A stretch of DNA of 46,242 nucleotides from assembly GCA_964624865.1 (NCBI GenBank), contig CAZUZU010000001.1:2823-49064 (forward strand), read 5' to 3'. This stretch comes from an uncultured archaeon (GTDB lineage Archaea; Thermoplasmatota; Penumbrarchaeia; CAZUZU01). The notes beneath the pieces were generated by a model. It was not told where the DNA came from and made no database searches. It saw nothing but the letters and a program-made list of their open reading frames with translations. The first letter of the stretch is position 1. Each line of letters begins with the position of its first letter. A program made the position numbers and the translations under genes. Shown here piece by piece: positions 11,637 to 46,242 of this stretch.

Positions 11637-11720
11637 ATGAAAAGAATCGTAGTAGCAACAGTTGTTATGACTTTGGTAGTAGTGGGCCTGATGAACATGT
11701 TCTCCATGCACGCGGAGGCG
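11637..11720 (+). other. Signal peptide of the 2,410-aa protein
   Basis: MKRIVVATVVMTLVVVGLMNMFSMHAEA|VSF has a basic N-terminus, a hydrophobic core, and an AxA-like cleavage motif. Confidence 0.6.
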
Positions 11721-14700: not shown

Positions 14701-17700
14701 CAACCAAGGCTGAAAGCTCATATATCATGGATGTAATTGCATATGATAATGCAGGAAATTCCGCAACTGATCAGGTATCATTCTTCATTGACAATACGGC
14801 GCCCAACCCGATCATCGAGTACCCGGCAAACGGGCAGTATGTTTCCGGCGATGAGACGATTAGCGTCAATGAATCCGACTGGATGAACCTGACGGTGGAG
14901 TACAACATTGACGGGACCGGATGGTATATTATGAATTGGGACAGCGGTTACTGGCTCGTTCCATTGAACACAAGCCTCCTAGCAGACGGAGAGCATGCGC
15001 TCAATGTCAGGGCAACGGACATGGCAGGCCATGTTTCAACCGTTTCATCAACCTTCTTTGTGAACAATGAGAACCCCACATGCTCAATCGTGTCTCCGTC
15101 AACTGGCCAGTTTCTGGAAGGTACGAAAACCTTCAGGGTCAATGCCGACGATTCCCTCGGGATTCACTTGGTGTATATCAGGATAGACAATATTGACACA
15201 CCATCAACAGAGCTTTTATCAGAAGCATCGTACAATGCCCAGAGCGGCCTTTACGAGCTTGAGGTGGACACAACGACATTGGATGACGGCAATTATTCGG
15301 TTAATGCCAGTGCATATGATAGTGGAATCAAAAGGACATGGGCCATGGGGGTTGTCTTCCGCGTGGACAATAATGCTCCCGAACTTTCCGTCTCCGACCC
15401 TTCCGAGGGGCAGGAGGTATATGGTGGTTATTTCCTAGCAGCCAGTTCTGATGACATCTTCCTGGCGTCAAGAGAGTACAGGATAGATTCAGGTCCGTGG
15501 CAGGTGGTGGGAAGCGTCTGGGACACTACTTTCTTTGCCGACGGCCCCCACACCCTGACCGTAAGGGCCAGGGACATGATAGGGCATGAGACCGTCGTGA
15601 CCATGACAGTGTACGTGAACAACAATGACCCGCTTTGCGACATAGTAAGCCCAACAGATGGAATTCACATCCAGGGCGACCATGTCCTGCGGTTCACCGC
15701 CTCCGATGCATACGGGATTAGTTCTCTGGTCTTCAGTATTGACAACACCAGCGGCCCGACAGCATATGACGATGTGTCGGCCGGCTACAACTCGGCAACC
15801 GGATACTGGGAGTATGACCTGAACACCCTGAGCCTCGGGGACGGCACATATACGCTGTATGCCTGGGCCCAGGATGGCTTCGGCAACACCACAATGGCCG
15901 GCCCCCTTCTGTTCAACATAGACAATACCGCGCCCAGCCTTTCCATTGCCAGTCCTATAGAGGGCATGACATATGAGGCCGACGTGGAGATATCAGTGAG
16001 CTCCACGGACACCTTCCCAACCACTGTCGAGTATCGGATAGACAGCGGCAGTTGGAGCTCGGTGGCCGGCGGTCCGACATACTGGAATTCCACTTCCGTT
16101 ATTGACGGCCAGCACACGGTCTATTTCCGTTCCACCGACTCGGCAGGGCATGTCTCTCTGGAATCGGTGAACATCCTTGTTGACAACAATGGGCCAAGCG
16201 TGACGATAGTGTCGCCCATGACCGGCGAGCATCTGGGAGGAACATACCTATTCAAGGTCAGTGCCAGTGATGCCCTGGGCGTGTCAAATGTGACAATAAC
16301 CCTTGACGGGCAAGCGTATGTTTGCTCCTACAACTCACAGAACAGCCTCTGGGAGGCATCCATCAACACCATTCTCATGCTGGACGAAAACTATGATGTC
16401 CGGGCTTACGCGAATGACAGCGTCCCGGGCCACACGACACAGTCCTCTCCGGTAGGGTTCAACATAAATAACAATCCGCCGACCATAAGCAATGTGGCAC
16501 CCCTGAACGGAGAGATATTCACCACAGCCAGCATGGTGGTCAATGCCACGGCCGAGGACCTGCCGTTCTCCTTGCCCGGAAACACAGTCCAGTACAGGTT
16601 TGACAATACCGGCCCCTGGTCCGTGCTTTCCAGCTCCGGCGGGGATTCCTACAACAGTACCGCATACATCGGCGGGCTGAGCGACGGCCCCCACACCCTC
16701 AACCTGAAGGTCATTGACTGGAATATGCTGGAGACCTCGCTTGATATTCAGTTCCACGTTGACCTGCATCTACCGCAATGTTCAGTTCTCTATCCCGGCA
16801 GCGGCACCAATCTCAACGGCCTCCAGACATTCTCGGTCATGGCAAGCGATGCCTGGGGAATTGACACGGTGCTCATAGAGATAGACGGTGTGAACAGAAC
16901 CATGGTCTACAACTCCAACAACGGCCTCTATGAACTGAGCCTTTTGACCGATGACCTGGGATACGGCAATCACACCGCAAGGGCCCACTGCATGGACCTG
17001 GCCTCTCAGTGGTACAGCTCAACTGTCACAGACTTCACGGTTGTACCGCCCAGCGATGACTATGACGGGGACGGCGTTCCCAATGATGTTGACCAGTTCC
17101 CCAATGACCCTGCGGAATGGGCAGACTCCGACGGGGACGGCGTGGGCGACAATTCCGACGCGTTCCCCGACGACCCCTCAGAATGGGCAGACTCCGACGG
17201 GGATGGTGTGGGCGATAACTCCGATGTGTTCCCCGATGACCCCACCGAGTCCGTGGATTCAGACGGGGACGGCGTCGGTGACAATGCAGACATCTATCCA
17301 TACGACTATGACAATGACGGCTATGCGGATTCCGTTGACCATTTCCCGATGAACCCCAATGAATGGAATGACACTGATTCGGATGGCATCGGAGACAACT
17401 CCGACCTGTATCCAGATGACCCGCTGAACATCCCGCCGCCGGACATGGACGGAGACGGCATACCCGATTCCATTGATACGGACATGGACGGCGACGGCGT
17501 GCCCAACACCGAGGATGCGTTTCCGGACAACCCGTATGAATGGTCCGATATGGACGGGGACGGTATTGGCGACAATTCCGATCTTGATATAGACGGCGAC
17601 GGGGTGGGTAACTCGCAGGATTACTATCCTTACGACAATTCGAGGTGGGAACCTGACAGCGTCCAGGATTCAGACGGAGACGGTATCGCAGATGCCTATG

Positions 17701-18869
17701 ATTCCGATATGGACGGGGATGGCGTGAACAACACATATGACGCGTTTCCCAACAACCCGTATGAATGGAGCGACCTCGACGGGGACGGTATTGGCGACAA
17801 CTCCGACCTTGATATCGACGGCGACGGAGTTGCCAATGACATGGACTACTATCCGTATGATGCCTCCAGGTGGGAACCTGACAGCGTCCAGGATTCAGAC
17901 GGAGATGGCATACCCGATTCTATTGATACGGACAGGGACGGCGACGGCGTGAACAACACCGAGGATGCGTTTCCGGATAACCCGTATGAATGGAGCGACC
18001 TTGACGGGGACGGATACGGTGACAACTCCGACCTTGATATCGACGGCGACGGGGTAAACAACGACCTGGATTATTATCCGTATGATGCGGATAAATGGCT
18101 GCCTCCTATAGATAGCGACGGTGACGGCATCCCTGATTCGGAGGATAGCGACAGGGACGGAGACGGATTCGAAAACTCCGAGGACGCATTCCCGGACAAT
18201 CCGAGCGAGTGGAAAGATACGGATGGCGACGGGACGGGTGATAACTCCGATCTCGATATCGATGGCGACGGCATCCTGAATGAGATGGACTCCTACCCGT
18301 TCGACTCTGAGAAGGGGGAGACCACGGAAGAATCACAGACCACGCCATCCGCCTCCGACGACGAAGAGCCGCCTTGTGACTTGATACAATCTCTCATATT
18401 AATTGGTCTAATCGTGTTGATCGTGGTAGTTTTTATAAAAGGTGGGACCGGAGGGAGCCAGGGGGGCGCCAAGACCAAAAGGCACGGGCCGGACAGCTTT
18501 GAAGCAAAGAGGCACGGCCCTGACAGCTTTGAGGCAAAGACGCCGGATGACAGCGAGCCATTGGCAAAGAGGCACGGGCCGGACAGCCACGAGGCGAAGA
18601 GAAAGCGCCATGGACCGGACAGCTTCGAGGCCAAAAAAGGCGACACGGCTGGGCCAGGAGGGGAGGAGCCAAAGATCGAGGCAATCGAGGGCAAGGAACT
18701 GGAGGAGTTGGAGGAAATGATTGACAAGAGCCAGGAAGACCTAAGCGATAAGAACATCGGCGAGGAAGAGGGAATCGAGGGCAAAGATATTAGCGATAAA
18801 AAGAAGGTCTCCGAGGAAGGCACAATCGCCTATGTCGAGACACGCACCCCCTGGGATAGATTGGGATAA
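11637..18869 (+). CDS. Giant (2,410 aa) type-I membrane cell-surface adhesin-like protein: signal peptide, about 17 Ig-like modules, TSP3 calcium-binding repeat array, TM helix, charged cytoplasmic tail
   Basis: This is a single uninterrupted ORF with a GAGG about 8 nt upstream of the ATG. The sub-features below give the domain evidence. Confidence 0.9.
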   Translation: MKRIVVATVVMTLVVVGLMNMFSMHAEAVSFDNPVPAYGDWVGNDVNFTVEDSEIGTTTQVAMYIDGELVTYMTKDGTTSRWYANLNVSAYSDGAHTITYAGVGAPEDYMTLTVNFDSHAPELSDFNVVYPDTYEAAREGSEIYFQVGAYDSVGIDKVEIDCGSFNFTPSSPFPHEMYDTGLNNDFDPNDGMYGSDYYVVDDLPESGYYPVQVSATDLQGNTISGNYYIKYDETKPQVSGVTVIYPPHQSSVKNGDMVNIRATVEDHHNTTVPGKIKTVTAYLDGGGGLLGSAEGSVLLYDDGNHFDFLAGDNIYGTGWVEVSYEGTASLPINVTAYDHAGNTWYDESSTLHVDNYPPYLAGETVEYPSGQNTVADGQEVNISLSDVGDAEYLYLDASSVGYGSALPNETGSSSWEDIPISTGYDSDIYTVVVRGIDDAGNIGYRDVYIAVHNPPPELEIVNPMNGETGLNGNLTVNVNITANATITGSNGLVDHVRLYVDGSHESNLIYNSTSDYWDTEINTSNWFDGMHTIKVTLTDIKGREVTDSVYVGFSNYNNQISITDPADGTNLSGSRKFTASVSDNIVVAELYVDSVLVDINSSITGGLVTFSIDTGNYDDGSHVIKIRGEDNRGETVTDMISAVFDNTPPVLEGLQIHYPGSGNGLLPDEALYISVRASDSGTGIDAFMAESGHFTGSGALADDGKGNDEVSGDGVYTSSDLTVDMTTPEGTYTVYVNATDYMGAKASSVAQYHVFDDAPDAFVADFVSPAPGSYQSSAFTVAITTENSLSGAEVQQLRVNSSHTGATWYQTTYNPTTSRWEHTFPSGSFNEGPVTIYLNGSNEMGLFCDEKSVQVFVDTVSPTLQIIEPQSNQFISGSYELRINASDMNSGIDPTTVKYSVDGGSPNSMSPTTGMSWNYVSTLDTSALTDGAHEIIFQAKDIAGNQQTGQVAIYVDNNAASMTECTIINPADDEYVSGDYTFSVLATDGQGIANVTLILDGQFISMAYNAQTGYYEHTMDTTTKAESSYIMDVIAYDNAGNSATDQVSFFIDNTAPNPIIEYPANGQYVSGDETISVNESDWMNLTVEYNIDGTGWYIMNWDSGYWLVPLNTSLLADGEHALNVRATDMAGHVSTVSSTFFVNNENPTCSIVSPSTGQFLEGTKTFRVNADDSLGIHLVYIRIDNIDTPSTELLSEASYNAQSGLYELEVDTTTLDDGNYSVNASAYDSGIKRTWAMGVVFRVDNNAPELSVSDPSEGQEVYGGYFLAASSDDIFLASREYRIDSGPWQVVGSVWDTTFFADGPHTLTVRARDMIGHETVVTMTVYVNNNDPLCDIVSPTDGIHIQGDHVLRFTASDAYGISSLVFSIDNTSGPTAYDDVSAGYNSATGYWEYDLNTLSLGDGTYTLYAWAQDGFGNTTMAGPLLFNIDNTAPSLSIASPIEGMTYEADVEISVSSTDTFPTTVEYRIDSGSWSSVAGGPTYWNSTSVIDGQHTVYFRSTDSAGHVSLESVNILVDNNGPSVTIVSPMTGEHLGGTYLFKVSASDALGVSNVTITLDGQAYVCSYNSQNSLWEASINTILMLDENYDVRAYANDSVPGHTTQSSPVGFNINNNPPTISNVAPLNGEIFTTASMVVNATAEDLPFSLPGNTVQYRFDNTGPWSVLSSSGGDSYNSTAYIGGLSDGPHTLNLKVIDWNMLETSLDIQFHVDLHLPQCSVLYPGSGTNLNGLQTFSVMASDAWGIDTVLIEIDGVNRTMVYNSNNGLYELSLLTDDLGYGNHTARAHCMDLASQWYSSTVTDFTVVPPSDDYDGDGVPNDVDQFPNDPAEWADSDGDGVGDNSDAFPDDPSEWADSDGDGVGDNSDVFPDDPTESVDSDGDGVGDNADIYPYDYDNDGYADSVDHFPMNPNEWNDTDSDGIGDNSDLYPDDPLNIPPPDMDGDGIPDSIDTDMDGDGVPNTEDAFPDNPYEWSDMDGDGIGDNSDLDIDGDGVGNSQDYYPYDNSRWEPDSVQDSDGDGIADAYDSDMDGDGVNNTYDAFPNNPYEWSDLDGDGIGDNSDLDIDGDGVANDMDYYPYDASRWEPDSVQDSDGDGIPDSIDTDRDGDGVNNTEDAFPDNPYEWSDLDGDGYGDNSDLDIDGDGVNNDLDYYPYDADKWLPPIDSDGDGIPDSEDSDRDGDGFENSEDAFPDNPSEWKDTDGDGTGDNSDLDIDGDGILNEMDSYPFDSEKGETTEESQTTPSASDDEEPPCDLIQSLILIGLIVLIVVVFIKGGTGGSQGGAKTKRHGPDSFEAKRHGPDSFEAKTPDDSEPLAKRHGPDSHEAKRKRHGPDSFEAKKGDTAGPGGEEPKIEAIEGKELEELEEMIDKSQEDLSDKNIGEEEGIEGKDISDKKKVSEEGTIAYVETRTPWDRLG
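11980..17040 (+). repeat. Array of about 17 Ig-like (about 95-100 aa) modules. The last 10 alternate between two subtypes.
   Basis: The boundary motif (V/I)-D-N-(N/T)-x-P-x3-5-(I/V)-x-x-P-x-x-G recurs every 280-300 nt. Examples: VDNNAPELSVSDPSEGQ, VNNNDPLCDIVSPTDGI, IDNTAPSLSIASPIEGM, VDNNGPSVTIVSPMTGE, INNNPPTISNVAPLNGE. Confidence 0.7.
17050..18320 (+). repeat. Thrombospondin type-3-like calcium-binding repeat array (DxDxDG loops), including four tandem 219-225-nt units from 17448
   Basis: DSDGDGVGDNSDAFPDDPSEWA recurs with a 69-nt period from 17100 to 17300. A 75-aa unit (DGDGIPDSIDTDMDGDGVPNTEDAFPDNPYEWSDMDGDGIGDNSDLDIDGDGV..YYPYD..RWEPDSVQDS) then starts at 17448, 17673, 17898 and 18117. 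Confidence 0.85.
18381..18437 (+). other. Transmembrane helix of the 2,410-aa protein
   Basis: LIQSLILIGLIVLIVVVFI is followed by basic K-GG-T-GG-S...K-TKR residues, consistent with the positive-inside rule. Confidence 0.75.
18477..18634 (+). repeat. Four copies of an 11-aa K-R-H-G-P-D-S-(F/H)-E-A-K motif in the predicted cytoplasmic tail
   Basis: KRHGPDSFEAKRHGPDSFEAK...AKRHGPDSHEAKRKRHGPDSFEAKK. The DNA copies are near-identical: ggcacgggccggacagc appears twice, and ggcacggccctgacagc and gccatggaccggacagc appear once each. Confidence 0.8.
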
Positions 18870-29841: not shown

Positions 29842-30085
29842 CGGTAAAGTCATGAAGTTTTATTTGTGGTTTGGTAAGTTCGAAGTCAAATGTATGTATG
29901 CTTGAATGCATGATGTTGGCCCTCTTCGGACGAACCTCTGCGCCGACAGTAAAGGGGACAGGGTAGCCCCGCGTGACGACAACCAACACCTGAGAAATTC
30001 CCGGGGCTTGTCCCTCTCCCTACTATAGCCAGGTAAGTTCCTTTGGCTGATGTTGGGAATAAATACGTATATTGGATGTGGTAGC

Positions 30086-30190
30086 ATGGAGAAAGATCGA
30101 AGCCAGAAGTTGAGAAACGTGAAACGAGCATTTTCAATAAGTGCGATATTTATATTGTTAATATCCGGGATACCCATGCTCGTGAGTGCG
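30086..30190 (+). other. Signal peptide or N-terminal anchor of the giant protein
   Basis: A basic N-region (KLRNVKR) is followed by a hydrophobic core (AFSISAIFILLISGIPMLV) and then VSA|LDG. Confidence 0.6.
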
Positions 30191-33100
30191 CTGGACGGCC
30201 CCGGGACGGACCCAGAGGCCAAGGAAAGATCGAATCCCAAACTCGTCTGGGATTTCGATGTTAAGGAAAATAACGGGAAATATATCGCAAAAACTCCTGT
30301 ACACGAGGTGGAGTTTCCGGAATATTTCAAAGACGGAATATCGTTGATGATCGGGGGAGAATCCATTGTCTACGGGATCGAGCGGCTGGATTACGAGACG
30401 GAAAGGAAACAGTGGTACACCCGCAATAATCTGACCGAAAAATATACCCTTTACACGGAGGGCGAGGAAAAACAAGTATATTGGGCGGACACGAAACCCT
30501 CCTGGATGAACGCCTCGTACGGGGAATGGACGCTGTACGACGAGGTCTCCCTTTTACCAGGAAGAAGTAAGGTTCTCATCCAGGGCACCAAAGTCGTTTA
30601 TAAGGATGCCTTCCAAGGCGTGGATATAATCTTCGAGGTCCAGTTCACCAAGGTCAAGGAGACTATAGTTTTGAACCGCGATTTCGATTTCTGTGTTTCC
30701 CCACTCCGGATAAAGTCGAGGGTATGTTCTATGGACGATATTGCCTTTACCGGCGGATTGAAGAATATTATCTCGACGGGTGCCAACGCCTTCGAGATCG
30801 AATCCCCGTATTATGTAAACGATAATAAAAAGGGAGATTATTGCACTTTTGAATACGATGCCGTGGACAAGAATACAATAGATATGATAACCGAGATATC
30901 AAATTCCAGGATCAGAAACCATAATGTCAACGGCGTCCCGATAATAATCGACCCGACCCTGGGTTCGTCCCTTAGCGGTTCAATATTGTACGAGGGGTTG
31001 TCAAACGGCACGGTCAAAGAGACCATAGACGGTACAGTTACATATTATGAAGACCAGAATAACAGGATATACGCGGAGAGCGATGTCGATATATCTGGTT
31101 CCCTCATTCTCGACAATATAACGTTGAAGGTAAATTCCAGCTCGGGTTCCATCTACACGATAAATGTCACGGACAGCGGGCGATTCGACATTCTCAATGC
31201 CTCCGCAGTTAAAAACAATAACACAGGCTATGGGTATAACCTACGTTACCTATCGGGAAGTCGGGGTACGATAAACAACTCACTGATAGAGAACGTCTCC
31301 GGCGAATACGAAGGTCTGAGAACGGAAACATCCGAGTTGAACATCACCAATTCCTTGATCCGCAACTCCGAGAGCCACGGCGTATACTGCAACGCCTCGT
31401 GGCCAGTAATCTACGGGAACAGCATCTACAACTGCAGCGGCGACGGCGTGTACTATCAGGGGCAGAGCGTGGAAATGGATTTGACGGACGAGGAGAACAC
31501 AACTACCAATTCGAACCTCAATTTCACTTCTGAGGGAATAAGAGTAAACGGGAGCGGTCCCGATACGGGTTATCTCATCACTGATGAGATTGAACTGCCC
31601 GATGATTGTTTATGGGAAGGAATAAAAATTACTGAAGAGAATAATATTACAGGTCTATCATATCTTGCAAGTATCACAGATCCGAACAATAACCCAATCG
31701 ACGGTTTTACCAACATATCGGGCCTACCGGAATATATTGATATATCATCGATTAACCCGGTAAAATTCGATACGATAGGTATTTTTGTAAATATCTCTCA
31801 TCCGGAGAGCAATAATGGTAATATCAGTATACTAACAATAAAGACGGGTTTTGAGCCTAAACGTAAGATTGTTGACGATCTATCAAATGATAGATATATA
31901 TCAGAATCCAGCGGAATATCCCAAAGCAATGGGATGATAGCACCAAAATATGGTTCAGGATATGCATTCGATATCGATACGACAGCCGATTTCGATGCAG
32001 GAGATAAAGGTAGCAATGAATCCGGGAACGTCAGCGTCGAGACCTCGACGGACAATTACAATATCGATGCCGGAGAGATCCAACTCTCCAATCGATACTG
32101 CGACAAGTTCGAATATGCCGACAGTGATGGAGAGACCTGGAAGTGGGACCAATGGACGCCCACAGGTTCCTGGTCTGTTCATGAAAATGACATAGATACA
32201 ACCGAAGACGGAGAATTCTATCAGTCAATATCAAGTACGGATTATCAACAAAACAGATTTTATTTAGGTGGTGAAAGTGAATATGTATTATCCGGTGATT
32301 TTGATATCCGGATGGCAATCGAACTCGGTTACTGGGTCTACGGCGGCAGTTATGGCACTCGCCAGAAATATGCTCATTTTTATTTACGTGATAGCGGGGG
32401 AACCTGGGCTTATATATCTAGAGAAGTTGATAATTACTGTACCGATATCTTCAGATGGAGAACTGCCAACACTCATCAATATATCTGGAATTATCACGAT
32501 AAGACATGTGCTATGAGATTCACCAGAACAGGGAGTACATTAAAGATGTATTATCGTAACGATATGAATGTCGAATCCGAAAGCTGGACACTCAAAGCAA
32601 CGGATAGTTCCTGGACATCAAATGATGTTTATGTCTTCCTCAGGTTCTATGATAATGCCATGAATAATTACAATGCGGATGTTCACTGGGACGATTTCTG
32701 GATAAAGGAAGGGGATCTCAAAGAATACGGATATTGCCAGTACGGCAACTACACAACAGAAAATCTAACCATTGAGTCCGGTCAAGTATTGGATTATGTA
32801 AGAGTCGATCATGAAAACCTGGATTCGGAGAACAAGATTAATTGGGTCGCCTTTTTAAACGACACTGGTTCAGTTGTGGCAAATTATACAAACAACGGAA
32901 GCGGAATAACGTCCGGGAATTATACAATCATTTCAGATAATAATCTGGATGAAGGTAATTTATCCGATATTAACGGCACGTATAGGATCAATGTCGGACT
33001 GAAAGGCAATAAGAGCTCGACCCCCGTGATAACCCGATTATCCGGGGAATTGGATACCGTTAACGAGTCATATTTCACAACCACCGAGATAGAATCAGAG

Positions 33101-39100: not shown

Positions 39101-42100
39101 AACGAGTGGGAATACACCGGCAACGATACGTTCCTTGTGGACGCATCGGTGAACGGCTTTGAGCCCGCTCTGTTGTCGGAACAGAACGTGCACGTGAGCG
39201 ACGATTCAGTGGGATACAGCTACATCCCGCTTGAGATAACCTCGGATTATGCAGGGAATGTCACGATTTCCAATCTGACCGTTTATTATAATATCTCGGC
39301 TGTAGTTAGGAACAATAATGTTATTAATACCGGGAATACGATGATAAATGCTGCGGATTCCTGGAGCAGAATCGTGTCAAATATCGTGGCTTCGGACAAT
39401 TCGTCAAGCACGGGCATAAAGAACAGGGAATCCGGAACCAAAGGAGATTCGGGGTCTTTGATATTCGACAATATAATCACAAATTCTGGAGATTACGGAA
39501 TAAACATCAACGTGACAGGCACGGTTATGAACGGCAACACGATATCAAACCCGGATTACGGCATATATTTCGACGAGGCGTCATATAACGCCGTTGGTGA
39601 TAACATAATATCGAATTGTACCGATTACGGCATATATCACAGGGACGAAAATCGAAAGGAGTTCGGCCCTGAGATGTATACCGAAATTTTTTCAAATACC
39701 ATTTCAGGCTGCAACATGGGATTGTACATGGATTCGGTAAACGACACCGTTTATTCGAACACGTTTTCTGGTTGTGATTACGGGTTCTCCTGGTATAACT
39801 CGTATGTAGGTAATGTCACAGGCAACAACTTCGACAACTGCAGTTACGGCGCCTACGCCTATGTGGTGGAAGATGAAACGACGTTACTCGCCGGGAACGA
39901 TTTCTCAAACTGCGACGTTGGTCTGAGCATGTTCGGCACCGGCAACGCCACCATCAGGAGCAACAAGTTCACGTCCAACACATACGGGATAAGGCTGCGT
40001 AGGGAGTTCAATTCCACAAAGCCCTACAACGTCACTGTTGATTACTGCGACTTCGAGTACAACATGTATGGCGTGGCAGCGTCCAACGTAACGTTCGAGA
40101 TAAACAACTGCACGTTTACATCCAACACTTTCAAGGACGTGTCCCTGCAAAGTACCAAGTCAAGCAATATGACCGACATTGAAACGGACCTTGGGGACAA
40201 TGCCGGTATATTCATGGAGGTGTCGGCAAACCTCAGTATCCAGAACAATACCTTGGAGATAATCAGTGCGGTCGAGTCGGGAGACGTTGACGGGGACGAC
40301 GACGACGATCTCGTAGGATTGTATAGAAATACCACGAGAAACGACTATGGAATCGTGGTTTGGGAATGGGACAACGGCGATTGGGACGACCCGGTTTACA
40401 TAAATTATACGTTAGACGAAGGCGACGAGTTCTCATCAATAAATATAGCCGATTTTACTGAAGACGAAGGCGAGGAAATATTAGTGATATTGAACAAAGA
40501 TGCCGACAATTCAAAAGCCTATATTTATTCCTATGTGGACCGGGCAATCAAGTATGAATTCTCCGATATCGGACCGGACACCGAGGAGTGTATCGTCTAT
40601 GATTACGACCTCGACGGCGACAACGAGACCGCGTTCATCGTCGAGGATTCGGACCAGGTGTGGATATTCGAGGAAGGCGGGGGAAGCTGGAATAGAATCG
40701 GAACCGTTGATGTGATCTCGAACCCCATTTACGGCGATTACGGCAACATCAACTCGTCGATCCCCAACTATCAAGAACTGGTAATCGTGGGTGAATACGA
40801 CGATCCGATAGGGAAGCTCTCGGTCATAAAATACGACGGCGGTTTCGAATCGGAGGATTACACATTTTCCAAGAGGGTGACGGAGGGCGTATCGGTCCTG
40901 GACTGCGACGGCGACGGCACTAAGGAGGTGGTGGTGACCTTCGCAGGCGAGGCGAGGATCATGTCATATGATACAGGCGAGTGGACGGTGGAGAACTCGG
41001 TGGACCTGCCGTGGGACCATAAATCCCGGGTGGAGAGGGGAGATTTCAACAACGATTCAATCGAGGATTTCATGCTCGGCTGGCGGGAGATTGTCAACAA
41101 CGATATGTACATCTACACCGCCTACTGCTACTTCTGGAACGATAATGCCGACGACTACGCAATAGTCAACATGGAGTTCAACATGACCCACAGCGTGGCA
41201 TACGACACGGAGGGAGGGGTTTCCATAGGCGACCCGGACAACGACGACGTGCCAGAGGTGGTCATCGCCCTGGAGATCGAGGGTGACGGCGAGAACCAGG
41301 ATGTGCTGGTGTACGACCTCGATTACTCCCAGGGATTCGTGAATCGAACGGTACGGGTGCAGGTGTACAACGACACCAACGCCCCCCTGGAGGGCGTGAG
41401 CGTCGCGGTCAGGGATGCGGAGGGCGCCGTAAGGTTCAGCGACACCACGGGATCGGACGGGCTCACGGGCAACCATATCGTGCCGCTCAAGGAGTTCAGA
41501 GGGGACGTATCGGACTACAAGATCATATACTACTCGCCGTTCAACGTGTCGGTGAACGACACCACGGAGTATTCGCTGGTGCGCCACTGCACCGTGATAC
41601 CCGGCACCGGCATTGCGACCATCAAGATGTGGCTGGGCGAAGACACGGACCAGGACGGGCTTACTAATGGGGAGGAGAACAACAGCTACCTCAGCAACTG
41701 GAGCAGCGAAGACACGGACCAGGACGGACTTAGCGACGGATACGAGGCAGGGATCAACGCCAGCACTTGCCCGAGGTTCTACAATTCCAGCACGAGCAGG
41801 TGGGAGCCCACGATCATCGATACCGGCAGGTACGCGCCGAGCGGGAGGAACGCTACCAGTGTCACCAGCGTGGACACTGACGGTGACAAGCTGCTTGACG
41901 GGAACGATATCTGGCTTGCGAATATCACCACCTCGGTCTACGATGCCTGGATCGAGCGGCACTATGTCTTCGACAACGACATGTTCATCGGTGAGGAGGG
42001 CGAGGGCACGAACCCGATAGACAACGACACCGATCGGGGCGGGGTGGAAGACGGCATCGAGTACCGGAGCGGGCAGGACCCCACCACCGACACGGGTGAG

Positions 42101-45058
42101 CGTGCTAACGACGGTGACTTCGACGGGCTGACAAGGAACGACGAGGACGAGTACTACAGGGATCCGAATGATAACGACGAGGACTGTGATGGTGACGGAT
42201 TACTTGATAGCGAGGAAGAATACGGTTCAAGAAAGGGAGGGGAGCCCGGGAGTTATGTGACGAGGTCTAATGACTACGATGGTGATGGAATATCAGATGA
42301 TAAAGAGATGTGTTACGTTAATGGAGTGAGAGGTGCCTTTTTTTACGAGGCCGAAGCTTCTTATCAACGTACCTGTGGGATAAGTCATAGTAATAGTCCT
42401 ATGCCTAAGGCCATTCATATTGATCCCAACCCAGAAGCTAACGATGCGGTGATCGGAACTGCTACATCAAATCTTTTGTGTGCTTGGAATATTGAATATC
42501 CCGAGGATTGCACCGGAAGTGGCATCGATTTTAATAAAAATCATGACTCTTTGATATCCAGTCATAATTATCGATTTGTTTTAAGGATGAGAGAGAGTTA
42601 TGAACAAAAGGATTCAAAGATAAGAGTTGTAGTAAGAAATTTTAATGTGTTTGGAGAATCATTAGAAATATTTAATAATAGCATGACTGTAAATCCCAAT
42701 TCACGTGGTTATGAATGGATACCTTTTCCGCATACCTTAAATTATTATAAATCTCGGTCTCATGAATACACCCAAGTTGAATTCTATGATGTTTCTGAAA
42801 ATGATCCGGTTACAATTTGGGGGTCTTGTAATTTGGAATTGGATTCCATAATATTAATCGATGCGTCACTCCAGTATTGGCGGACACAAAGTACTCAGGT
42901 AACCTTACCATATTGTAAAGATAGTGACGGAGATCTTATATGGGACGATGACGAAGTAATAGAGGGTAATTATTGGCTTCCTGCAGAGTGGTATAAAACA
43001 AATTATGCGACAGACAGGATTGATGAACGTTCGGTAGGTTATTCCGTTAATAGAGCTACCAATGACAATGAAAACCCCGTATTAGATATTGATAATATCG
43101 ATTTTAATAATGCAATGTACTCCATATATTGCAGGGGTCTAAATGAGAAACGATGTAGTTATGAAGAGATGGATCCAAATGATTATAATTATTTTAAAAT
43201 AAAGATTCAAGGCGTAGATAAAAAATATTTTTACAATTATTACAGCGGCGGCTCATTAGGCCCCAAAGGTATCTATGATAGCTCAAATATTATTGAACGA
43301 AAAGTTTATGTCACTGATGACAAGGTATGGGGAAAAACATGGTACAATCCACCTGCCCGCGGCAAATATACCAATAATCTACACGTATATCATTGTCGCC
43401 AATTTAAACCCGATACCTCTACAAATCAAAGGATTATATTCTATGATTATAACGATTGCGGTATGAAATTTGATTGGATATCGGTAATAAAAAATGAAAA
43501 CGTAGACGATTATCTGCCTTCAAATCCTCTTTCTTTTGACACTGATGGCGATTATATTTGGGATAAGGTAGAAATTGCATATCAGGAGACAGATATGGAA
43601 ATTAATGGTGATGATTGGTACGATTGGTATGAAGGAAGAAATGAAGTAGAAGGTGTAGATTGGTATGATGATGCTCTTTGGATAGATCAATCCGAATCCG
43701 GTGTATTAAGAGCATATCATCCTTTAGGTGAGATAGATAATGATATTTATTACGATAGTGAATATAATATAGATAACAAGGACGTAATATATTTAAATGA
43801 GTATCAATATCTATCATTTGATATGTCTCTTGACAAAGAAAAAAAGGATGACGGGTCTGAACCTTTTTCTAAATTATTTTTAATTCTTGGGATCTTTTAT
43901 ACAAGTAAGAATTCTGTTGAGTATAAAATAATCAACATTGACACCGAATGTTGGCCGTCATCCCCACAAATAACATATAATTGGTATTATTACTCTGAAA
44001 AGAAAGTTAAAATCGATTTGAGAGACATAGGTTCTGTAATTTATCCAGAAGAGCAATGTAAACATAATTATTATTATCCTGTCCGATGGATAACACATAT
44101 GGCGTTTTACGCATATAGCAATGATAATTGTGAAAAAATATATAAGATATCATCAATTAGATTTGAGAAACAACTCAATCCTTTAAGTGATGATAGTGAT
44201 AACGATGGAATACAAGACGGTTATGAGATTGGCTGTTATGATTATTCTTATTCATACTTTAATTGGCACTATAAACCGAGTGGAACATCTTATAAACCGA
44301 AATATGATTATGAAAAATCTTCAGGATGTTTAGATCCCGATACCGATAATGATGCATTGCTTGATGGAATGGAGGCCCATAGACATTTATCATTAAAAGA
44401 TAAGGATACGGACAATGATGGTTTAAATGATTATTATGAATATGTTGCTTATGGACATTATGGTTTCAATGGTTACTATTCATACGGTCGTATCCCAAAG
44501 GGATATTCAGCGTCCTTGCCGTATCTTCAACATCATCCCCATACAAATATTCCGGACATTTATATCGAAATGGATTGGATGCGCAATTGTGAACCTGAAG
44601 ATAGTGATGGTAACGATGTTTGGGATTTTGTGGAGATAGCAATGGATATATTTTACAATCGAGGAATTCATCTACATGTAGATAATGGCTGTATGGGTAG
44701 TGGTTCGCAAACATCTAGAAAAGGTACGATTGAAGACGCATCTTGGGGTATAAAAAACGAGCATTTTTCAAGAGAAGGTATGGGTATATTTTATTATGGC
44801 TTAATTTGCATTGAATTATCAGGAGGATATGTGGGTAAAGGCGGTGGATATAAGATCGCAATTGCAAGTGCGAAAATGGATTCGACAAAGGAATGGGCGG
44901 GAGTGTTTTTACATGAATTGGGACATTGTGTCATCAGGGGTTGGGATGATCATTGTAATAATGATCCATGTGCAATGCAAGGAAGTTATTCTGGAGTTCC
45001 TGATCTAACTTATTGTAAGAAATGTACCGAATTAATCGATCCAGGGAAAGGGATATAA
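30086..45058 (+). CDS. Giant (4,990 aa from ATG 30086; 5,002 aa from ORF-track start 30050) mosaic secreted surface protein with a C-terminal metzincin-like domain
   Basis: About 15 kb is uninterrupted in one frame. The preferred start gives MEKDRSQKLRNVKRAFSISAIFILLISGIPMLVSA (signal/anchor). The domain calls are in the sub-features below. Confidence 0.9.
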   Translation: MEKDRSQKLRNVKRAFSISAIFILLISGIPMLVSALDGPGTDPEAKERSNPKLVWDFDVKENNGKYIAKTPVHEVEFPEYFKDGISLMIGGESIVYGIERLDYETERKQWYTRNNLTEKYTLYTEGEEKQVYWADTKPSWMNASYGEWTLYDEVSLLPGRSKVLIQGTKVVYKDAFQGVDIIFEVQFTKVKETIVLNRDFDFCVSPLRIKSRVCSMDDIAFTGGLKNIISTGANAFEIESPYYVNDNKKGDYCTFEYDAVDKNTIDMITEISNSRIRNHNVNGVPIIIDPTLGSSLSGSILYEGLSNGTVKETIDGTVTYYEDQNNRIYAESDVDISGSLILDNITLKVNSSSGSIYTINVTDSGRFDILNASAVKNNNTGYGYNLRYLSGSRGTINNSLIENVSGEYEGLRTETSELNITNSLIRNSESHGVYCNASWPVIYGNSIYNCSGDGVYYQGQSVEMDLTDEENTTTNSNLNFTSEGIRVNGSGPDTGYLITDEIELPDDCLWEGIKITEENNITGLSYLASITDPNNNPIDGFTNISGLPEYIDISSINPVKFDTIGIFVNISHPESNNGNISILTIKTGFEPKRKIVDDLSNDRYISESSGISQSNGMIAPKYGSGYAFDIDTTADFDAGDKGSNESGNVSVETSTDNYNIDAGEIQLSNRYCDKFEYADSDGETWKWDQWTPTGSWSVHENDIDTTEDGEFYQSISSTDYQQNRFYLGGESEYVLSGDFDIRMAIELGYWVYGGSYGTRQKYAHFYLRDSGGTWAYISREVDNYCTDIFRWRTANTHQYIWNYHDKTCAMRFTRTGSTLKMYYRNDMNVESESWTLKATDSSWTSNDVYVFLRFYDNAMNNYNADVHWDDFWIKEGDLKEYGYCQYGNYTTENLTIESGQVLDYVRVDHENLDSENKINWVAFLNDTGSVVANYTNNGSGITSGNYTIISDNNLDEGNLSDINGTYRINVGLKGNKSSTPVITRLSGELDTVNESYFTTTEIESETYEQWDALLLNKSTSDVDNFITVSVLDGETNSTITGYSELSGSYIPLSGIDTYLHTSLKLRFDFITDGSNPPELYEWQLHKTPRWSYNYIYDCENGIRLNGSSPLISNNYIYKNSESGISIDNSYSSTLGRRMTYENVQLFGASPVEYDFDTSEGFAHMDDQTNSQSFWNSTTQSIDFISNTNDPAGSFERMQINLSTKLSPNSFWSLESEFHLTFRNNSEGAYGDMSVIPVLLNSTDDEYGRIYVHAYGGNDTINNNCDVISIYYQSSIGASNTTICQYYSDDTGNGSYDGDYFIRIWYHPWESTLYGQICNASKQSDVLASGSLVKPNILIENISAGVCAGQGSSSSNYYEGYVNEIKLYLGLPEIIESDDLNVTPYNASLNKVSETSGYLVTAPLTIDDYYTGVSLNLTTTEPANTSISVSILDAVTGDAIEGFENLYSNDIGLVNLTDDSNHGFKLRFDFQGANNSTPVLSKVLFRYYHYEKSGGVIDNVVYHNHDGIMVGNNSDFVSIVGNTIFDNTRYGIHMEGANRLFEYQGLNGYGLSDGINFDSSGSKESIISLPPRSGIYDMNFTVSGEKYIPYGPLGSDYYFQGTRTNSTVNMTLNGTINVTVPTNWTASYAVASYTNLTDNGVETNSSNVNLSCNHSGTNLQFDINSSVYFNSSVLNQTTDILAFNFTVNQTDIEGNLSVVLTFTLQKQTLWEQQEDGYDISVDLDPSKVNLSGLKLIIPIPNNGFVYANASVYNSTCEDPVDYSSNLSTDNKDSGYVVFDIGAIDEDDFTESWDYQHEMDTWSDSHHPTGWSTLTYTNANYITHDTEGDNDYLYSNEQTDWDDCGLQKWNIDLGEDYTIETRVNISSGGFCAFKYYDGSYSCGLSVSEGSFGIDTSQWHTYRKVANDGDYKFYIDGELDSSGSLSSDTSNSHEFWMAYTSLAGMVTGWIDYIKWRSDNEDAELTFDANLTYYLNNPSLSLGDVTLWSHTGEFNTTATPMNNTTAKESYIKSLNQALESDLTSNDLTLSVSAASAGYMNISNLGFHLVRRSYIGKNRIWGGEYGIYVNNSTSVLVDGNHVLNSEVSGIELANCSGRQRSLNSLRGGLSNGTYSFDDDSLTTGENWEMTVPDGSVITNMSFDLSGESYVPLYNLSESHEYTGSISSQYSGMLPANLSGYKPSNWNNITEMTLDASVDSLDYGDCLSLFGLDAVSDTTYTYLWNRSKDEMESSTVDYYRPAVADLVPTRGYRIGYIYSYNSTELNASIWNGSAWIDHVNLTANLTTNQKQCFALDFEYVSLDGVALWAEYNGTAEYLRWATYNSSGWDISNQTINVSNVRWITMSEVGTTGTFLALLQLSNGTVYSMTWNGSEWDNSSVTEISNSSVSTSYCGIALTEYNGNIIALYSETGGLRYRIYSNGWGSEQTVTGISSPYWVELVTNKDGTVCGAASTSSKDLYGLAFTGGSLKESRLLCEDGLHTTTSPCFDVVADSVGDFYFIWSRTDYFNFNITWYNGVYWINQSYWNNTYPDHEDTIGHWHFDTGYGSTVVDSSGYYYNGTIHNAEWDYSGRFHKGVFFNSTEGNNYVEFDDHVSTFDDYSQGILELWFKWNGTDTGGTLFFLGDKDTTNDYAALRVGSSTSNFNDESLGFVFFEGGTCKLGAYARKGETHYRDGQWHHVAWVVGEDFNYMFIDGKKETLSYDYGSSSTGNYFLNVNNADTMTLGLSNNSISHDFFGSIDEMRIIDDEFVKPLDAHWIEVVADTESDRMFLVATGDSYLIHSQYEDSEWTDTEKSSYYLYSPCDSSRSLDASFERINFPPTPFSAAMNVTHNNNTKTYTESSDTITYTYSDNLTCVNVSGADTYNFTVDSDLINVSSDILLTVDAINTTSANWTYVFDASSYNATNVTDGYSIEITLWAPVGVNVTNPQLKVYTPCTSYMEANVTVVGQNENLTSDYIDYSCKSDGYILLDLSGLSEIGWVWNYSANNITINVTLRFSPGELKLDIGGDGDNEWEYTGNDTFLVDASVNGFEPALLSEQNVHVSDDSVGYSYIPLEITSDYAGNVTISNLTVYYNISAVVRNNNVINTGNTMINAADSWSRIVSNIVASDNSSSTGIKNRESGTKGDSGSLIFDNIITNSGDYGININVTGTVMNGNTISNPDYGIYFDEASYNAVGDNIISNCTDYGIYHRDENRKEFGPEMYTEIFSNTISGCNMGLYMDSVNDTVYSNTFSGCDYGFSWYNSYVGNVTGNNFDNCSYGAYAYVVEDETTLLAGNDFSNCDVGLSMFGTGNATIRSNKFTSNTYGIRLRREFNSTKPYNVTVDYCDFEYNMYGVAASNVTFEINNCTFTSNTFKDVSLQSTKSSNMTDIETDLGDNAGIFMEVSANLSIQNNTLEIISAVESGDVDGDDDDDLVGLYRNTTRNDYGIVVWEWDNGDWDDPVYINYTLDEGDEFSSINIADFTEDEGEEILVILNKDADNSKAYIYSYVDRAIKYEFSDIGPDTEECIVYDYDLDGDNETAFIVEDSDQVWIFEEGGGSWNRIGTVDVISNPIYGDYGNINSSIPNYQELVIVGEYDDPIGKLSVIKYDGGFESEDYTFSKRVTEGVSVLDCDGDGTKEVVVTFAGEARIMSYDTGEWTVENSVDLPWDHKSRVERGDFNNDSIEDFMLGWREIVNNDMYIYTAYCYFWNDNADDYAIVNMEFNMTHSVAYDTEGGVSIGDPDNDDVPEVVIALEIEGDGENQDVLVYDLDYSQGFVNRTVRVQVYNDTNAPLEGVSVAVRDAEGAVRFSDTTGSDGLTGNHIVPLKEFRGDVSDYKIIYYSPFNVSVNDTTEYSLVRHCTVIPGTGIATIKMWLGEDTDQDGLTNGEENNSYLSNWSSEDTDQDGLSDGYEAGINASTCPRFYNSSTSRWEPTIIDTGRYAPSGRNATSVTSVDTDGDKLLDGNDIWLANITTSVYDAWIERHYVFDNDMFIGEEGEGTNPIDNDTDRGGVEDGIEYRSGQDPTTDTGERANDGDFDGLTRNDEDEYYRDPNDNDEDCDGDGLLDSEEEYGSRKGGEPGSYVTRSNDYDGDGISDDKEMCYVNGVRGAFFYEAEASYQRTCGISHSNSPMPKAIHIDPNPEANDAVIGTATSNLLCAWNIEYPEDCTGSGIDFNKNHDSLISSHNYRFVLRMRESYEQKDSKIRVVVRNFNVFGESLEIFNNSMTVNPNSRGYEWIPFPHTLNYYKSRSHEYTQVEFYDVSENDPVTIWGSCNLELDSIILIDASLQYWRTQSTQVTLPYCKDSDGDLIWDDDEVIEGNYWLPAEWYKTNYATDRIDERSVGYSVNRATNDNENPVLDIDNIDFNNAMYSIYCRGLNEKRCSYEEMDPNDYNYFKIKIQGVDKKYFYNYYSGGSLGPKGIYDSSNIIERKVYVTDDKVWGKTWYNPPARGKYTNNLHVYHCRQFKPDTSTNQRIIFYDYNDCGMKFDWISVIKNENVDDYLPSNPLSFDTDGDYIWDKVEIAYQETDMEINGDDWYDWYEGRNEVEGVDWYDDALWIDQSESGVLRAYHPLGEIDNDIYYDSEYNIDNKDVIYLNEYQYLSFDMSLDKEKKDDGSEPFSKLFLILGIFYTSKNSVEYKIINIDTECWPSSPQITYNWYYYSEKKVKIDLRDIGSVIYPEEQCKHNYYYPVRWITHMAFYAYSNDNCEKIYKISSIRFEKQLNPLSDDSDNDGIQDGYEIGCYDYSYSYFNWHYKPSGTSYKPKYDYEKSSGCLDPDTDNDALLDGMEAHRHLSLKDKDTDNDGLNDYYEYVAYGHYGFNGYYSYGRIPKGYSASLPYLQHHPHTNIPDIYIEMDWMRNCEPEDSDGNDVWDFVEIAMDIFYNRGIHLHVDNGCMGSGSQTSRKGTIEDASWGIKNEHFSREGMGIFYYGLICIELSGGYVGKGGGYKIAIASAKMDSTKEWAGVFLHELGHCVIRGWDDHCNNDPCAMQGSYSGVPDLTYCKKCTELIDPGKGI
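31106..31470 (+). other. Right-handed parallel beta-helix (PbH1/NosD-like) repeat block
   Basis: INNSLIENVSGEYEGLRTETSELNITNSLIRNSESHGVYCNASWPVIYGNSIYNCSGDGVYY shows a 22-24-aa N-x-I-x-N periodicity. Shorter blocks of the same kind lie at about 33350-33480, 34565-34700 and 36230-36365. Confidence 0.7.
37681..38320 (+). other. LamG / concanavalin-A-like lectin domain (LamG_3-type)
   Basis: HWHFDTGYGSTVVDSSGYYYNGTIHNAEW...GILELWFKWNG...GQWHHVAWVVGEDFNYMFIDGKK...GSIDEMRIIDDEF. Two further jelly-roll-like segments lie at about 32105-32710 and 35448-35955. Confidence 0.7.
39302..40260 (+). other. Large parallel beta-helix (PbH1) repeat block
   Basis: There are more than 10 consecutive units. Examples: DNIITNSGDYGININVTGTVMNGNTISNPDYGIYFDEASYNAVGDNIISNCTDYGIYH, then NTISGCNMGLYMDS, NTFSGCDYGFSW, NNFDNCSYGAYA, NDFSNCDVGLSM, NKFTSNTYGIRL. 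Confidence 0.8.
40268..41330 (+). other. FG-GAP/VCBS-like repeats (integrin-alpha-type beta-propeller)
   Basis: Ca-loop motifs recur every 55-70 aa: GDVDGDDDDDLVG, ADFTEDEGEEILV, YDYDLDGDNETAFIV, LDCDGDGTKEVVV, GDFNNDSIEDFMLG, GDPDNDDVPEVVIA. Confidence 0.7.
41341..41636 (+). other. Carboxypeptidase-regulatory-like (transthyretin-like) beta-sandwich domain
   Basis: VRVQVYNDTNAPLEGVSVAVRDAEGAVRFSDTTGSDGLTG fits the typical V-x-V-x-D...PL-x-G-V-x-V...T-x-x-DG pattern. Confidence 0.55.
41637..42310 (+). repeat. TSP3-like calcium-binding repeats forming the linker before the low-GC tip
   Basis: EDTDQDGLTNGEE, EDTDQDGLSDGYE, VDTDGDKLLDGND, DNDTDRGGVEDGIE, DEDCDGDGLLDSEE, DYDGDGISDDKE. A 22-nt direct repeat gcgaagacacggaccaggacgg occurs at 41637 and 41706. 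Confidence 0.8.
41675..41712 (+). repeat. Internal copy of the 38-nt exact repeat (encodes ENNSYLSNWSSED)
   Basis: gagaacaacagctacctcagcaactggagcagcgaaga is identical to 46205-46242. It starts on a codon boundary of the giant ORF. Confidence 0.95.
44560..45055 (+). other. C-terminal zinc metalloprotease domain, archaemetzincin (M54)-like metzincin
   Basis: HELGH lies at 44912-44926, followed by CVIRGWDD-HC-NNDP-C-A-M-(12 aa)-C-KK-C (CxxC at 45014-45025). This compares with the published archaemetzincin signature HEXXHXXGX3CX4CXMX17CXXC, with altered spacings. Confidence 0.6.
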
Positions 45059-45628
45059 ATGGACAAGAAATACAGTCCGTTGATTACTATAGGTTTGGTA
45101 ATAATCCTATGTCTGGCTTTTTATTATGGTTATATTAATAATTATTTTTTAAAATATCCCTGTTATAGATATAAATATACGGTAGAAATTAATACTGATT
45201 CGCCGGAGAATTATACTATTTATGTACCAATACTGGTAAATGAAGATGATGGTGAAATATCGAAAGCGATGAATAATTTGGAGAAATCAGGTAAATGTTC
45301 ATATGAAATAACGAATTCGAGAAATGGATGGGCTATGATGATAGAGGGTATAGGAAATATTACTTTACTCTCTGAGGGTGAAAAAGAAATACAATATGCA
45401 TGGTTGAGCATGTATAATGCCTCTTATGGTGAAAATAAAAGTTTTGGTGAATATTGGATATATTCTGACCATAAAGGAAATAATTCAATAGATGTTTGGG
45501 TGTATGGTTATATAGACAAGGGACATAGTGAATTTGAAGGCAAGAGTTATGTAAGTTATGTTAGATGCCAGATTAAAGAATCGGGATGGCAGAGATATAG
45601 GGGAGATCATGGGGTATCTGTTGTTTAA
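45059..45628 (+). CDS. Hypothetical 189-aa single-pass membrane protein, translationally coupled to the giant ORF (candidate cognate partner, inhibitor or immunity protein)
   Basis: The ATG directly abuts the giant ORF stop (ataTAAATGgac). It has the same low-GC composition. An N-terminal TM helix (LITIGLVIILCLAFYYGYI) precedes a beta-rich domain of about 150 aa. No family was recognised. Confidence 0.7.
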   Translation: MDKKYSPLITIGLVIILCLAFYYGYINNYFLKYPCYRYKYTVEINTDSPENYTIYVPILVNEDDGEISKAMNNLEKSGKCSYEITNSRNGWAMMIEGIGNITLLSEGEKEIQYAWLSMYNASYGENKSFGEYWIYSDHKGNNSIDVWVYGYIDKGHSEFEGKSYVSYVRCQIKESGWQRYRGDHGVSVV

Positions 45629-46167
45629 ACACGAAAACGCCGTGAAATCTGAAGTAATACCTGGCATTTCGGGAGACCATAGCCCCCGCCCTTCTAACTA
45701 CGGAAATGCCGTATTACGGAGAGCTGGCCGGTTTTACGGTCGTTTTCCAGATAGCCGCTGAAATATTCGAAAAGAGAGATGCAAGCAAGATGGAAAGGAG
45801 AAAAAAGAAGGTAGTCAAAAATGGGAATCCTCCACCTCGGCAACGTGTGCTGGCGTAAGAAGTCCAAATCTCTTGGTATGAGCGCTTCGAGGACAACCCA
45901 TGGGGTTTTGGGCATGGGTCACCGCAGAAGCGATGAGGGAGGGCATAAAGGGCGCCGGTCCGAGCGAGTGCAGGGAGCGAGGATAGCGCTTGCGGGGTGG
46001 GAGGAAGAGTGCGAGCAGGCGTTACCGAGGTTTTTGGTACCTGTAGGTTTTTGGCGAGGTAATGCCAGCGGAGCACGAGGGGCAAAAAGACCAGGGTGCG
46101 AGCGCTACATCGAAGGCACTCGTCCGTTATCGTGTCCGTCCACAAGAGTGGAGTCGATGCCAGGCAA

Positions 46168-46204
46168 GAGAGCCGGGCACTGGCTCTCGGCCCTTTGTGT
46201 TTGT
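46168..46204 (+). terminator. Hairpin plus T-rich tract (terminator-like) immediately before the repeat junction
   Basis: A 7-bp stem pairs gagagcc (46168-46174) with ggctctc (46182-46188) around a 7-nt loop. ggccCTTTGTGTTTGT follows, ending at 46204. Confidence 0.35.
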
Positions 46205-46242
46205 GAGAACAACAGCTACCTCAGCAACTGGAGCAGCGAAGA
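46205..46242 (+). repeat. Terminal copy of the 38-nt exact repeat, running off the window end
   Basis: A character-by-character comparison with 41675-41712 gives 38/38 identity. Identity stops abruptly at 46204 (t) versus 41674 (g). The extent beyond 46242 is unknown. Confidence 0.95.

Follow-up and report, generated by a model that had tools for sequence, protein, structure and literature searches.

Bacterial Rhs and CDI loci are the described systems that the locus analysed in the current work most closely resembles. In Rhs loci, dissociated tips located downstream of the main gene are recognised by a GC peak and by a region whose sequence is the same as in the upstream core; within a given locus the core fragments are identical, and their length varies (Jackson et al. 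2009, PMC2935791). It has been proposed that a circular intermediate containing a core fragment and a tip integrates by a single crossover, thereby shunting the old tip to a silent position downstream (PMC2935791). In CDI loci, the orphan cdiA-CT/cdiI modules keep varying lengths of upstream cdiA sequence and are mostly found without initiation signals (Poole et al. 2011, PMC3150448).

The DNA analysed here (named the "window" below) is a stretch of 46,242 nt, and its host is taken to be an archaeon because the neighbouring genes in the window include one for Pus10 with an archaeal THUMP domain, one for a KaiC-type ATPase and one for a DUF835 regulator. The features relevant to this work are listed in Table 1. 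From 5' to 3', the elements are the core of a giant gene, a core fragment (named R), an AT-rich tip, a small partner gene, a spacer, and the 38 visible nt of a second, identical R that lacks the core sequence 5' of it, a layout which on our reading matches that of C-terminal displacement in bacterial Rhs and CDI loci. What this comparison claims is how the locus works, not that it belongs to either family.

As in Rhs loci, a large GC-rich core is followed by an AT-rich, laterally acquired tip and by a small gene placed directly 3' of that tip, and a putative 5'-truncated, core-identical fragment lies downstream, which in Rhs marks a silent tip and of which 38 nt are seen here. Unlike in Rhs, the host is an archaeon, the scaffold is of the beta-helix/FG-GAP/TSP3 rather than the YD-repeat type, the giant protein carries no PxxxxDPxGL demarcation motif, and the tip is a sequence of ≈958 aa with a predicted metzincin protease instead of a short toxin domain. 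The orphan modules of CDI loci likewise follow the main gene, contain a variable amount of upstream coding sequence usually lacking initiation signals, precede a small downstream gene, and share an identity with the main gene that ends at a short conserved motif. The present locus differs from them in having no VENN motif, two-partner-secretion domain or CdiB, and in that the motif at which the sequence switches is a TSP3 calcium-binding loop. A combined Pfam and motif search of the giant protein retrieved no YD/Rhs, CdiA/TPS/FHA, VENN or DPxGL features. With regard to the partner gene expected of Rhs and CDI loci, a 189-aa ORF is found immediately 3' of the tip, has the same AT-rich composition and is represented, together with the tip domain, by a homologous pair on an unrelated contig (see below); its immunity role is putative. 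The assignment of toxin and immunity roles to the metzincin tip and its membrane-anchored partner, respectively, is in the same way a putative one, drawn by analogy.

Table 1 Features of the giant-gene locus, with positions counted from the first nucleotide of the window
Feature	Position	Strand	Basis
Giant ORF, 5002 aa	30050..45058	+	ORF list; Pfam Beta_helix, NosD, FG-GAP_3; TSP3-like motifs
Internal 38-mer copy	41675..41712	+	Encodes ENNSYLSNWSSE; high-GC3 native part of the giant gene
Core fragment R, 510 nt (presumed extent)	41675..42184	+	From the start of identity to the codon-usage switch; only the first 38 nt seen twice
AT-rich tip, ≈958-965 aa, GC3 0.27	42185..45058	+	GC3 profile and sequon count; ends in metzincin-type domain
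Metzincin-type zinc protease domain (predicted)	roughly 44540-45055	+	Motif, homolog alignment and structure model
189-aa partner gene	45059..45628	+	ATG is the next base after the giant ORF stop; GC3 0.25
Non-coding spacer, 576 nt	45629..46204	.	No codon periodicity; no RNA or protein family match
Terminal 38-mer copy	46205..46242	+	Presumed start of a second core copy that lacks its 5' part; exact match and blast

Results

The last 38 nt of the window duplicate a stretch inside the giant gene

Direct comparison within the window revealed that its last 38 nt, GAGAACAACAGCTACCTCAGCAACTGGAGCAGCGAAGA, are identical to an internal segment of the giant gene at 38/38 bases. This is the sole pair in the window, as no third copy was found on either strand when up to 3 mismatches were allowed; furthermore, the number of exact 38-mer pairs expected by chance in 46 kb is ≈3e-14, and 0/100 dinucleotide shuffles produced a 38-mer match. 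The terminal repeat is real and not due to chance, even though a terminal repeat of k-mer size is, when taken alone, ordinary. A scan of genome, metagenome and viral contig collections with the 38-mer returned 0 matches, and exact look-ups of products of the window's genes gave no entry. The internal copy is situated between the TSP3 motifs at aa 3865 and aa 3888 of the giant protein. The terminal copy is truncated at the point where the data end, so that 38 nt represents the minimum length of the repeat.

The left edge of the identity is abrupt: the base located 5' to each copy differs, and the in-register identity over the upstream 15-300 nt amounts to 20-30%, which corresponds to that of random sequence. 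No microhomology is present at the 46204/46205 junction, and blastn and tblastx searches of positions 45629-46242 against the rest of the window detected nothing besides the 38-mer. The spacing between the two copies is 4530 nt (3 x 1510, i.e. 1510 codons), and the terminal copy is in frame with the giant ORF, with the 189-aa ORF and with an ATG at position 46157, an agreement in phase which by itself has a probability of 1 in 3. The exactness of the copy, its sudden onset and its codon phase relative to this ATG had all been put forward in the original prediction, and each of them was borne out by these comparisons.

The giant gene consists of a GC-rich core and an AT-rich tip

The giant protein has a hydrophobic segment at its N-terminus and contains beta-helix/NosD repeats, a region of the FG-GAP type and calcium-binding motifs resembling TSP3 (at aa 3865, 3888, 4045, 4075, 4715 and 4786), and is on the basis of this predicted layout a secreted or surface protein. 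Its core (aa 1-4037) contains 158 N-X-S/T sequons, ≈2.3 times the number expected from its composition. The protein is represented in the public collection by a record from NCBI (P0021) which begins at Met43 and corresponds to a product of 4960 aa. This gene call, starting at position 30176, removes most of the hydrophobic, signal-like segment AFSISAIFILLISGIPMLVSA (30050-30190), and for this reason the longer start used here looks more plausible. Within the core, the region 31550-32750 has a GC3 of 0.34-0.47, compared with 0.6-0.8 across most of the giant gene, a mosaic composition that suggests earlier module exchanges.

The segment corresponding to R (41675-42184) has a GC3 of 0.83, as does the upstream core from position 40850. 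Approximately 510 nt 3' of the start of the internal copy, GC3 drops from 0.82 to 0.27, the maximum-likelihood change point being the codon at position 42185 (support 42161-42188), which falls inside the TSP3 motif DCDGDGLLD at aa 4045. The low GC3 persists up to the stop codon of the giant gene and then through the abutting 189-aa gene, and total GC climbs again at ≈45660, just past the stop codon of that gene; the low-GC block therefore comprises the end of the giant gene and the small gene that follows it. The other genes in the window have a GC3 of about 0.55-0.68. Furthermore, a single sequon is present in the tip, for which its composition predicts ≈8, compared with the 158 of the core. 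The C-terminal tip is thus sharply decoupled from the core by both GC3 and sequon density, and, as judged from these two measures, appears to have evolved under a different regime.

A GGATCC sequence (BamHI site) is present at 42160-42165, on the GC3 change point, and a GATC at position 45605, near the right boundary of the AT-rich block. A cloning chimera generated at GGATCC would need an in-frame fusion, in the same orientation, of two TSP3-coding fragments as well as a second junction, and the occurrence of the site was judged coincidental. A chimeric assembly of the AT-rich block from two organisms is also unlikely, the contig returning to high-GC DNA which ends in a copy of the same gene.

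Relatives of the core of the giant gene were found neither in GTDB species genomes nor in JGI metagenomes, and in clustering at 90% the giant protein stands alone. A 5.8-billion protein word index also returned no relatives of the core; since this index missed the giant protein of the window itself as well as a 40%-identical homolog of the 189-aa protein, its negatives are weak for this locus. The same applies to the word-index part of the search for a second protein carrying the R segment, which retrieved none besides the giant protein among the called proteins searched. When 1.84 billion representative proteins were searched exhaustively with HMMER, nothing but the window's own protein matched the N-terminal ≈650 aa of the tip, and its last ≈300 aa, encompassing TSP3 motifs and the terminal domain, yielded about 80 distant homologs.

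The window also encodes a second large surface protein of 2410 aa (11637-18869), which has at least 8 Big_7 Ig domains and a transmembrane segment. Its TSP_3 array is built of DNA repeats of 225 nt and 66 nt (17064-18341), and its tail carries four repeats of the KRHGPDSFEAK type (18477-18648).

The tip ends in a metzincin-type domain followed by a partner gene

The tip terminates in the motif HELGH...HC-x4-C-x-M-x12-C-x2-C, with HELGH located at aa 4955, and in the homolog alignment the elements HELGH, HC-x4-C-x-M and C-x2-C are conserved. No Pfam family matched the terminal domain, and the NCBIfam archaemetzincin family NF033823 gave a weak match (E 0.005; 16.7 bits compared with a cutoff of 145). 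An AlphaFold model of the last 222 aa (pLDDT 72) matched adamalysin/ADAM and fragilysin structures with E-values between 2e-5 and 1e-3 and a TM of ≈0.5. The tip is therefore predicted, from these motifs and this model, to end in a protease domain of the metzincin fold. The HExxH, the downstream Met and the predicted fold are shared with adamalysin/ADAM, fragilysin and archaemetzincin, and the Cys pattern resembles that of archaemetzincin; the tip differs from these metzincins in having no Pfam match and an archaemetzincin score far under the cutoff, a resemblance and a difference that bear on the function of the tip and not on the repeat.

The 189-aa protein is predicted to consist of an N-terminal transmembrane helix and a beta-rich domain and matched no Pfam or NCBIfam family; its structure model was of low confidence (pLDDT 54) and was not used. 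A homolog of it was found through the genomic context of the tip homologs, the word-index search having returned none. On the JGI contig Ga0136851_10048794 (L002, 35% GC; positions 2527-4280), a metzincin-domain homolog (P0029) is followed, 6 nt downstream, by a gene whose 205-aa product shares 40% identity with the 189-aa protein across 156 residues (tblastn E 4e-26). Upstream of this pair, genes for an IS3-type transposase and an Mrr-like nuclease are present. P0029, which starts 18 nt past the transposase gene, is possibly a 5'-truncated fragment in its own right. The other contexts in which tip homologs occur were too short or lacked a partner gene. Because the homologous pair is adjacent on an unrelated contig of 35% GC beside an IS3 transposase, the protease domain and its partner form a two-gene unit which is also found in an AT-rich gene pool and which behaves as a transferable one.

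The terminal copy is preceded by a non-coding spacer

The last 393 nt of the spacer (45812-46204), i.e. those directly 5' of the terminal copy, have a GC content of 58% and a G content of 36%, compared with a GC content of 26-47% for the other intergenic regions of the window. The GC content by codon position in these 393 nt is 0.56/0.59/0.60, which corresponds to an absence of periodicity in any phase and thus argues against a genuine gene start before the terminal copy. The relevant frame contains stop codons up to position 45814 and is open from 45815. For the spacer as a whole (45629-46204), no Rfam match was obtained even at E<=1, no tRNA was found, no frame gave a Pfam match, and the folding z-score of -0.5 is not significant.

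A terminator-like hairpin (GCCGGG...CTCGGC) is located at 46172-46191 and is accompanied by a T-rich run that ends exactly at 46204, the base preceding the copy. The ATG at 46157 lies 48 nt upstream of the copy, is itself preceded by a GGAG at a distance of 5 nt, and opens a 16-aa lead, MPGKRAGHWLSALCVC, the hairpin falling within the codons of this lead. Inspection of the lead, in which the hydrophobic run covers only 7 residues and a lipobox is lacking, agrees with the earlier statement that it has no signal-peptide character. From these sequence features, the terminal copy looks like a 5'-truncated piece of coding sequence that abuts non-coding DNA, and not like the independent start of a secreted-protein gene.

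The last 16 nt of the 189-aa gene (45610-45625) are complementary at 14/16 positions to the start of the repeat (46208-46223, and also 41678-41693), so that imperfect inverted repeats flank the spacer; this pairing is probably coincidental, since ≈3-4 such pairs are expected in a region of 5 kb.

The sequence stops at the repeat

Three proteins of the window, the giant and the 189-aa protein among them, are each recorded from one NCBI contig of 49,064 nt, which is 2,822 nt longer than the 46,242 nt of the window. The left end of the window cuts the gene for a TctA transporter, ≈41 profile positions of which are missing, and the 8 start variants of the left-truncated TctA product were absent from the protein collection in an exact look-up, which suggests that the contig continues leftward beyond the window. 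The absence from the same collection of 9 variants of the partial ORF at the right end is uninformative as to that end. A random window cut inside the first 38 nt of the repeat copy would have a probability in the order of 1e-3, whereas the breaking of an assembly on an exact repeat routinely gives such a picture, and it is consequently likely that the contig ends at 46242 because of the repeat.

The position resembles a de Bruijn repeat break or cycle, in which a contig ends in a short exact copy of an internal segment, roughly of k-mer size. Such a break accounts for the stop of the data and for the truncation of the copy; it does not account for the existence of the 46204/46205 junction, which has to be contained in the reads, and a terminal overlap of 38 nt would imply k=39. 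This is not known to be a usual final k among current metagenome assemblers. The original prediction had listed an assembler stopping at a repeated k-mer among its explanations, which probably holds as the reason why the sequence ends where it does and leaves the junction itself unexplained.

Alternative explanations for the junction

The 4530-bp unit 41675-46204, consisting of R, tip, partner gene and spacer, could be present as a head-to-tail tandem in the genome or in a subpopulation, or as an excised circle, the assembler having gone once round and stopped on re-entry, in which case the same tip would follow position 46242. In assembly graphs, a cycle classically shows itself by a contig end that repeats sequence from further inside, a tandem repeat or circle would produce precisely the junction from 46204 to 41675, and the Rhs model itself invokes circular intermediates with core fragment and tip (PMC2935791). 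We nevertheless consider this arrangement unlikely: the junction is without microhomology, and the left breakpoint is placed 510 nt upstream of the compositional boundary, a position to be expected of a core fragment, whereas a simple duplication would have no reason to begin there. The collection also contains no second protein resembling the AT-rich tip, and the giant protein is a singleton in its cluster, an absence that is uninformative if the contig ends at 46242. A distinctly unlikely alternative is that no second genomic copy exists and that the junction is an artefact, generated either by a chimeric read or template switch (e.g. during multiple-displacement amplification, or as a library chimera) or by a spurious graph edge at a contig end of low coverage. 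In favour of this, an assembly is least well supported where its contigs end, this copy is both short and terminal, the genomes, metagenomes, viral contigs and JGI metagenomes searched yielded no independent sequence that confirms the junction, and amplification chimeras preferentially join nearby sites. Such chimeras are, however, mostly inverted and not direct, and the partner site is found here 4.5 kb away, on the same strand and in the same gene, a coincidence whose probability is estimated at ≈0.5% for chimeras formed at random in a ≈2-Mb genome; moreover, assemblers normally require several reads per k-mer, and the junction is placed where a displaced core fragment is expected, after partner gene and spacer.

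If the copy were instead part of a downstream paralog homogenised by gene conversion, a smaller TSP3 gene would start at the ATG at 46157 or at a GTG at 46148, with the conversion tract beginning at codon 17. The in-frame ATG 48 nt upstream with its GGAG 5 nt before it, the frame open from 45815, and the abrupt edges known of conversion tracts agree with such a gene; the lack of coding periodicity in the 393 nt upstream, a 16-aa lead without signal peptide or lipobox in front of a repeat that encodes extracellular-type sequence, the terminator-like hairpin inside the putative first 16 codons, and the failure to find a protein of this kind in the collection make it decidedly improbable. Of the earlier suggestion of a tandem paralog fragment, the fragment as such may still apply, and a functional paralog initiated at 46157 is unlikely, given that upstream coding signal and signal peptide are both missing. 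Hardly credible, finally, is a DGR, in which the non-coding template repeat would begin with the terminal copy and would give rise to mutagenised cDNA that overwrites the internal segment in the giant gene. A copy of an internal coding segment flanked by non-coding DNA downstream of a large surface-protein gene, and a segment rich in AAC, AGC and TAC codons, would be in line with it. The internal copy is, however, a linker between TSP3 motifs at 3.4 kb from the stop codon, and not a C-terminal variable region of the lectin type; no reverse transcriptase was found among the window ORFs scanned against Pfam, several mid-sized ORFs in the region 2504-24000 having been read by eye only. This possibility was rejected, as 0/15 adenines differ between the two copies and an active DGR would give adenine-specific mismatches. 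An integron attC or a site-specific att site was also discarded, there being no matching core site at the junction.

Discussion

The explanation that we tentatively prefer, although it is somewhat less likely than not to be the correct one, is that the 38 nt represent the start of a second, 5'-truncated copy of that part of the core which adjoins the variable tip of the giant gene, and that the assembly broke on this repeat. According to this displacement model, circular or incoming DNA carrying a core fragment, a new tip, a partner gene and a spacer would undergo a single crossover between its core fragment and the identical core sequence of the chromosomal gene. The new tip (the AT-rich sequence 42185-45058 together with the 189-aa gene) would thereby be fused in frame to the expressed gene, and the copy of the core fragment with the previous tip would be pushed downstream, where it would be silent behind the spacer. 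The second copy of R would then reach a point corresponding to ≈42184, with an older, different tip behind it, and a short-read assembler that fails to cross the exact repeat would leave the data ending 38 nt into this second copy. We infer the extent of the copy to ≈42184, the different tip following it, the mechanism of recombination and the identity of the window end with the contig end.

That the copy is preceded by non-coding DNA and a terminator-like hairpin is as expected for a silent fragment without a gene start of its own. Homologous rather than site-specific recombination fits the locus, because the compositional boundary lies 510 nt from the edge of the repeat. The original prediction had also proposed the start of an orphan or alternative C-terminal module, and it is this proposal that the anatomy of the locus (AT-rich foreign tip, partner gene, non-coding spacer and truncated core copy) supports best, the module itself lying beyond the data.

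A more far-reaching proposition, which must be regarded as doubtful, is that this archaeon runs a displacement system similar to that of Rhs and CDI loci on an unrelated scaffold, i.e. a glycosylated beta-helix/FG-GAP/TSP3 protein of 5002 aa. The metzincin tip and its membrane partner would constitute a horizontally acquired, exchangeable cassette, recombination would take place in the core fragment bounded by TSP3 motifs, and displaced tips would be stored silently downstream.

The presence of a foreign tip and partner cassette on a giant archaeal surface protein is more noteworthy than the repeat. If the junction is only the product of an assembly cycle or chimera, it illustrates that in metagenome bins short repeats can be the points at which giant, repeat-rich genes end or are joined, and the attachment of the tip to the core would need to be checked before the 5002-aa protein is accepted as it stands; since R is a repeat, this attachment is to be treated with caution. 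If, on the other hand, a displaced tip does follow the copy, the exchange of cassettes by recombination in a conserved core fragment would reach beyond the bacterial Rhs and CdiA scaffolds. Displacement would then also occur in Archaea, on another protein architecture and with a protease as its payload in place of a classical toxin, and the locus would offer a concrete site at which to study the diversification of archaeal surface or antagonism proteins.
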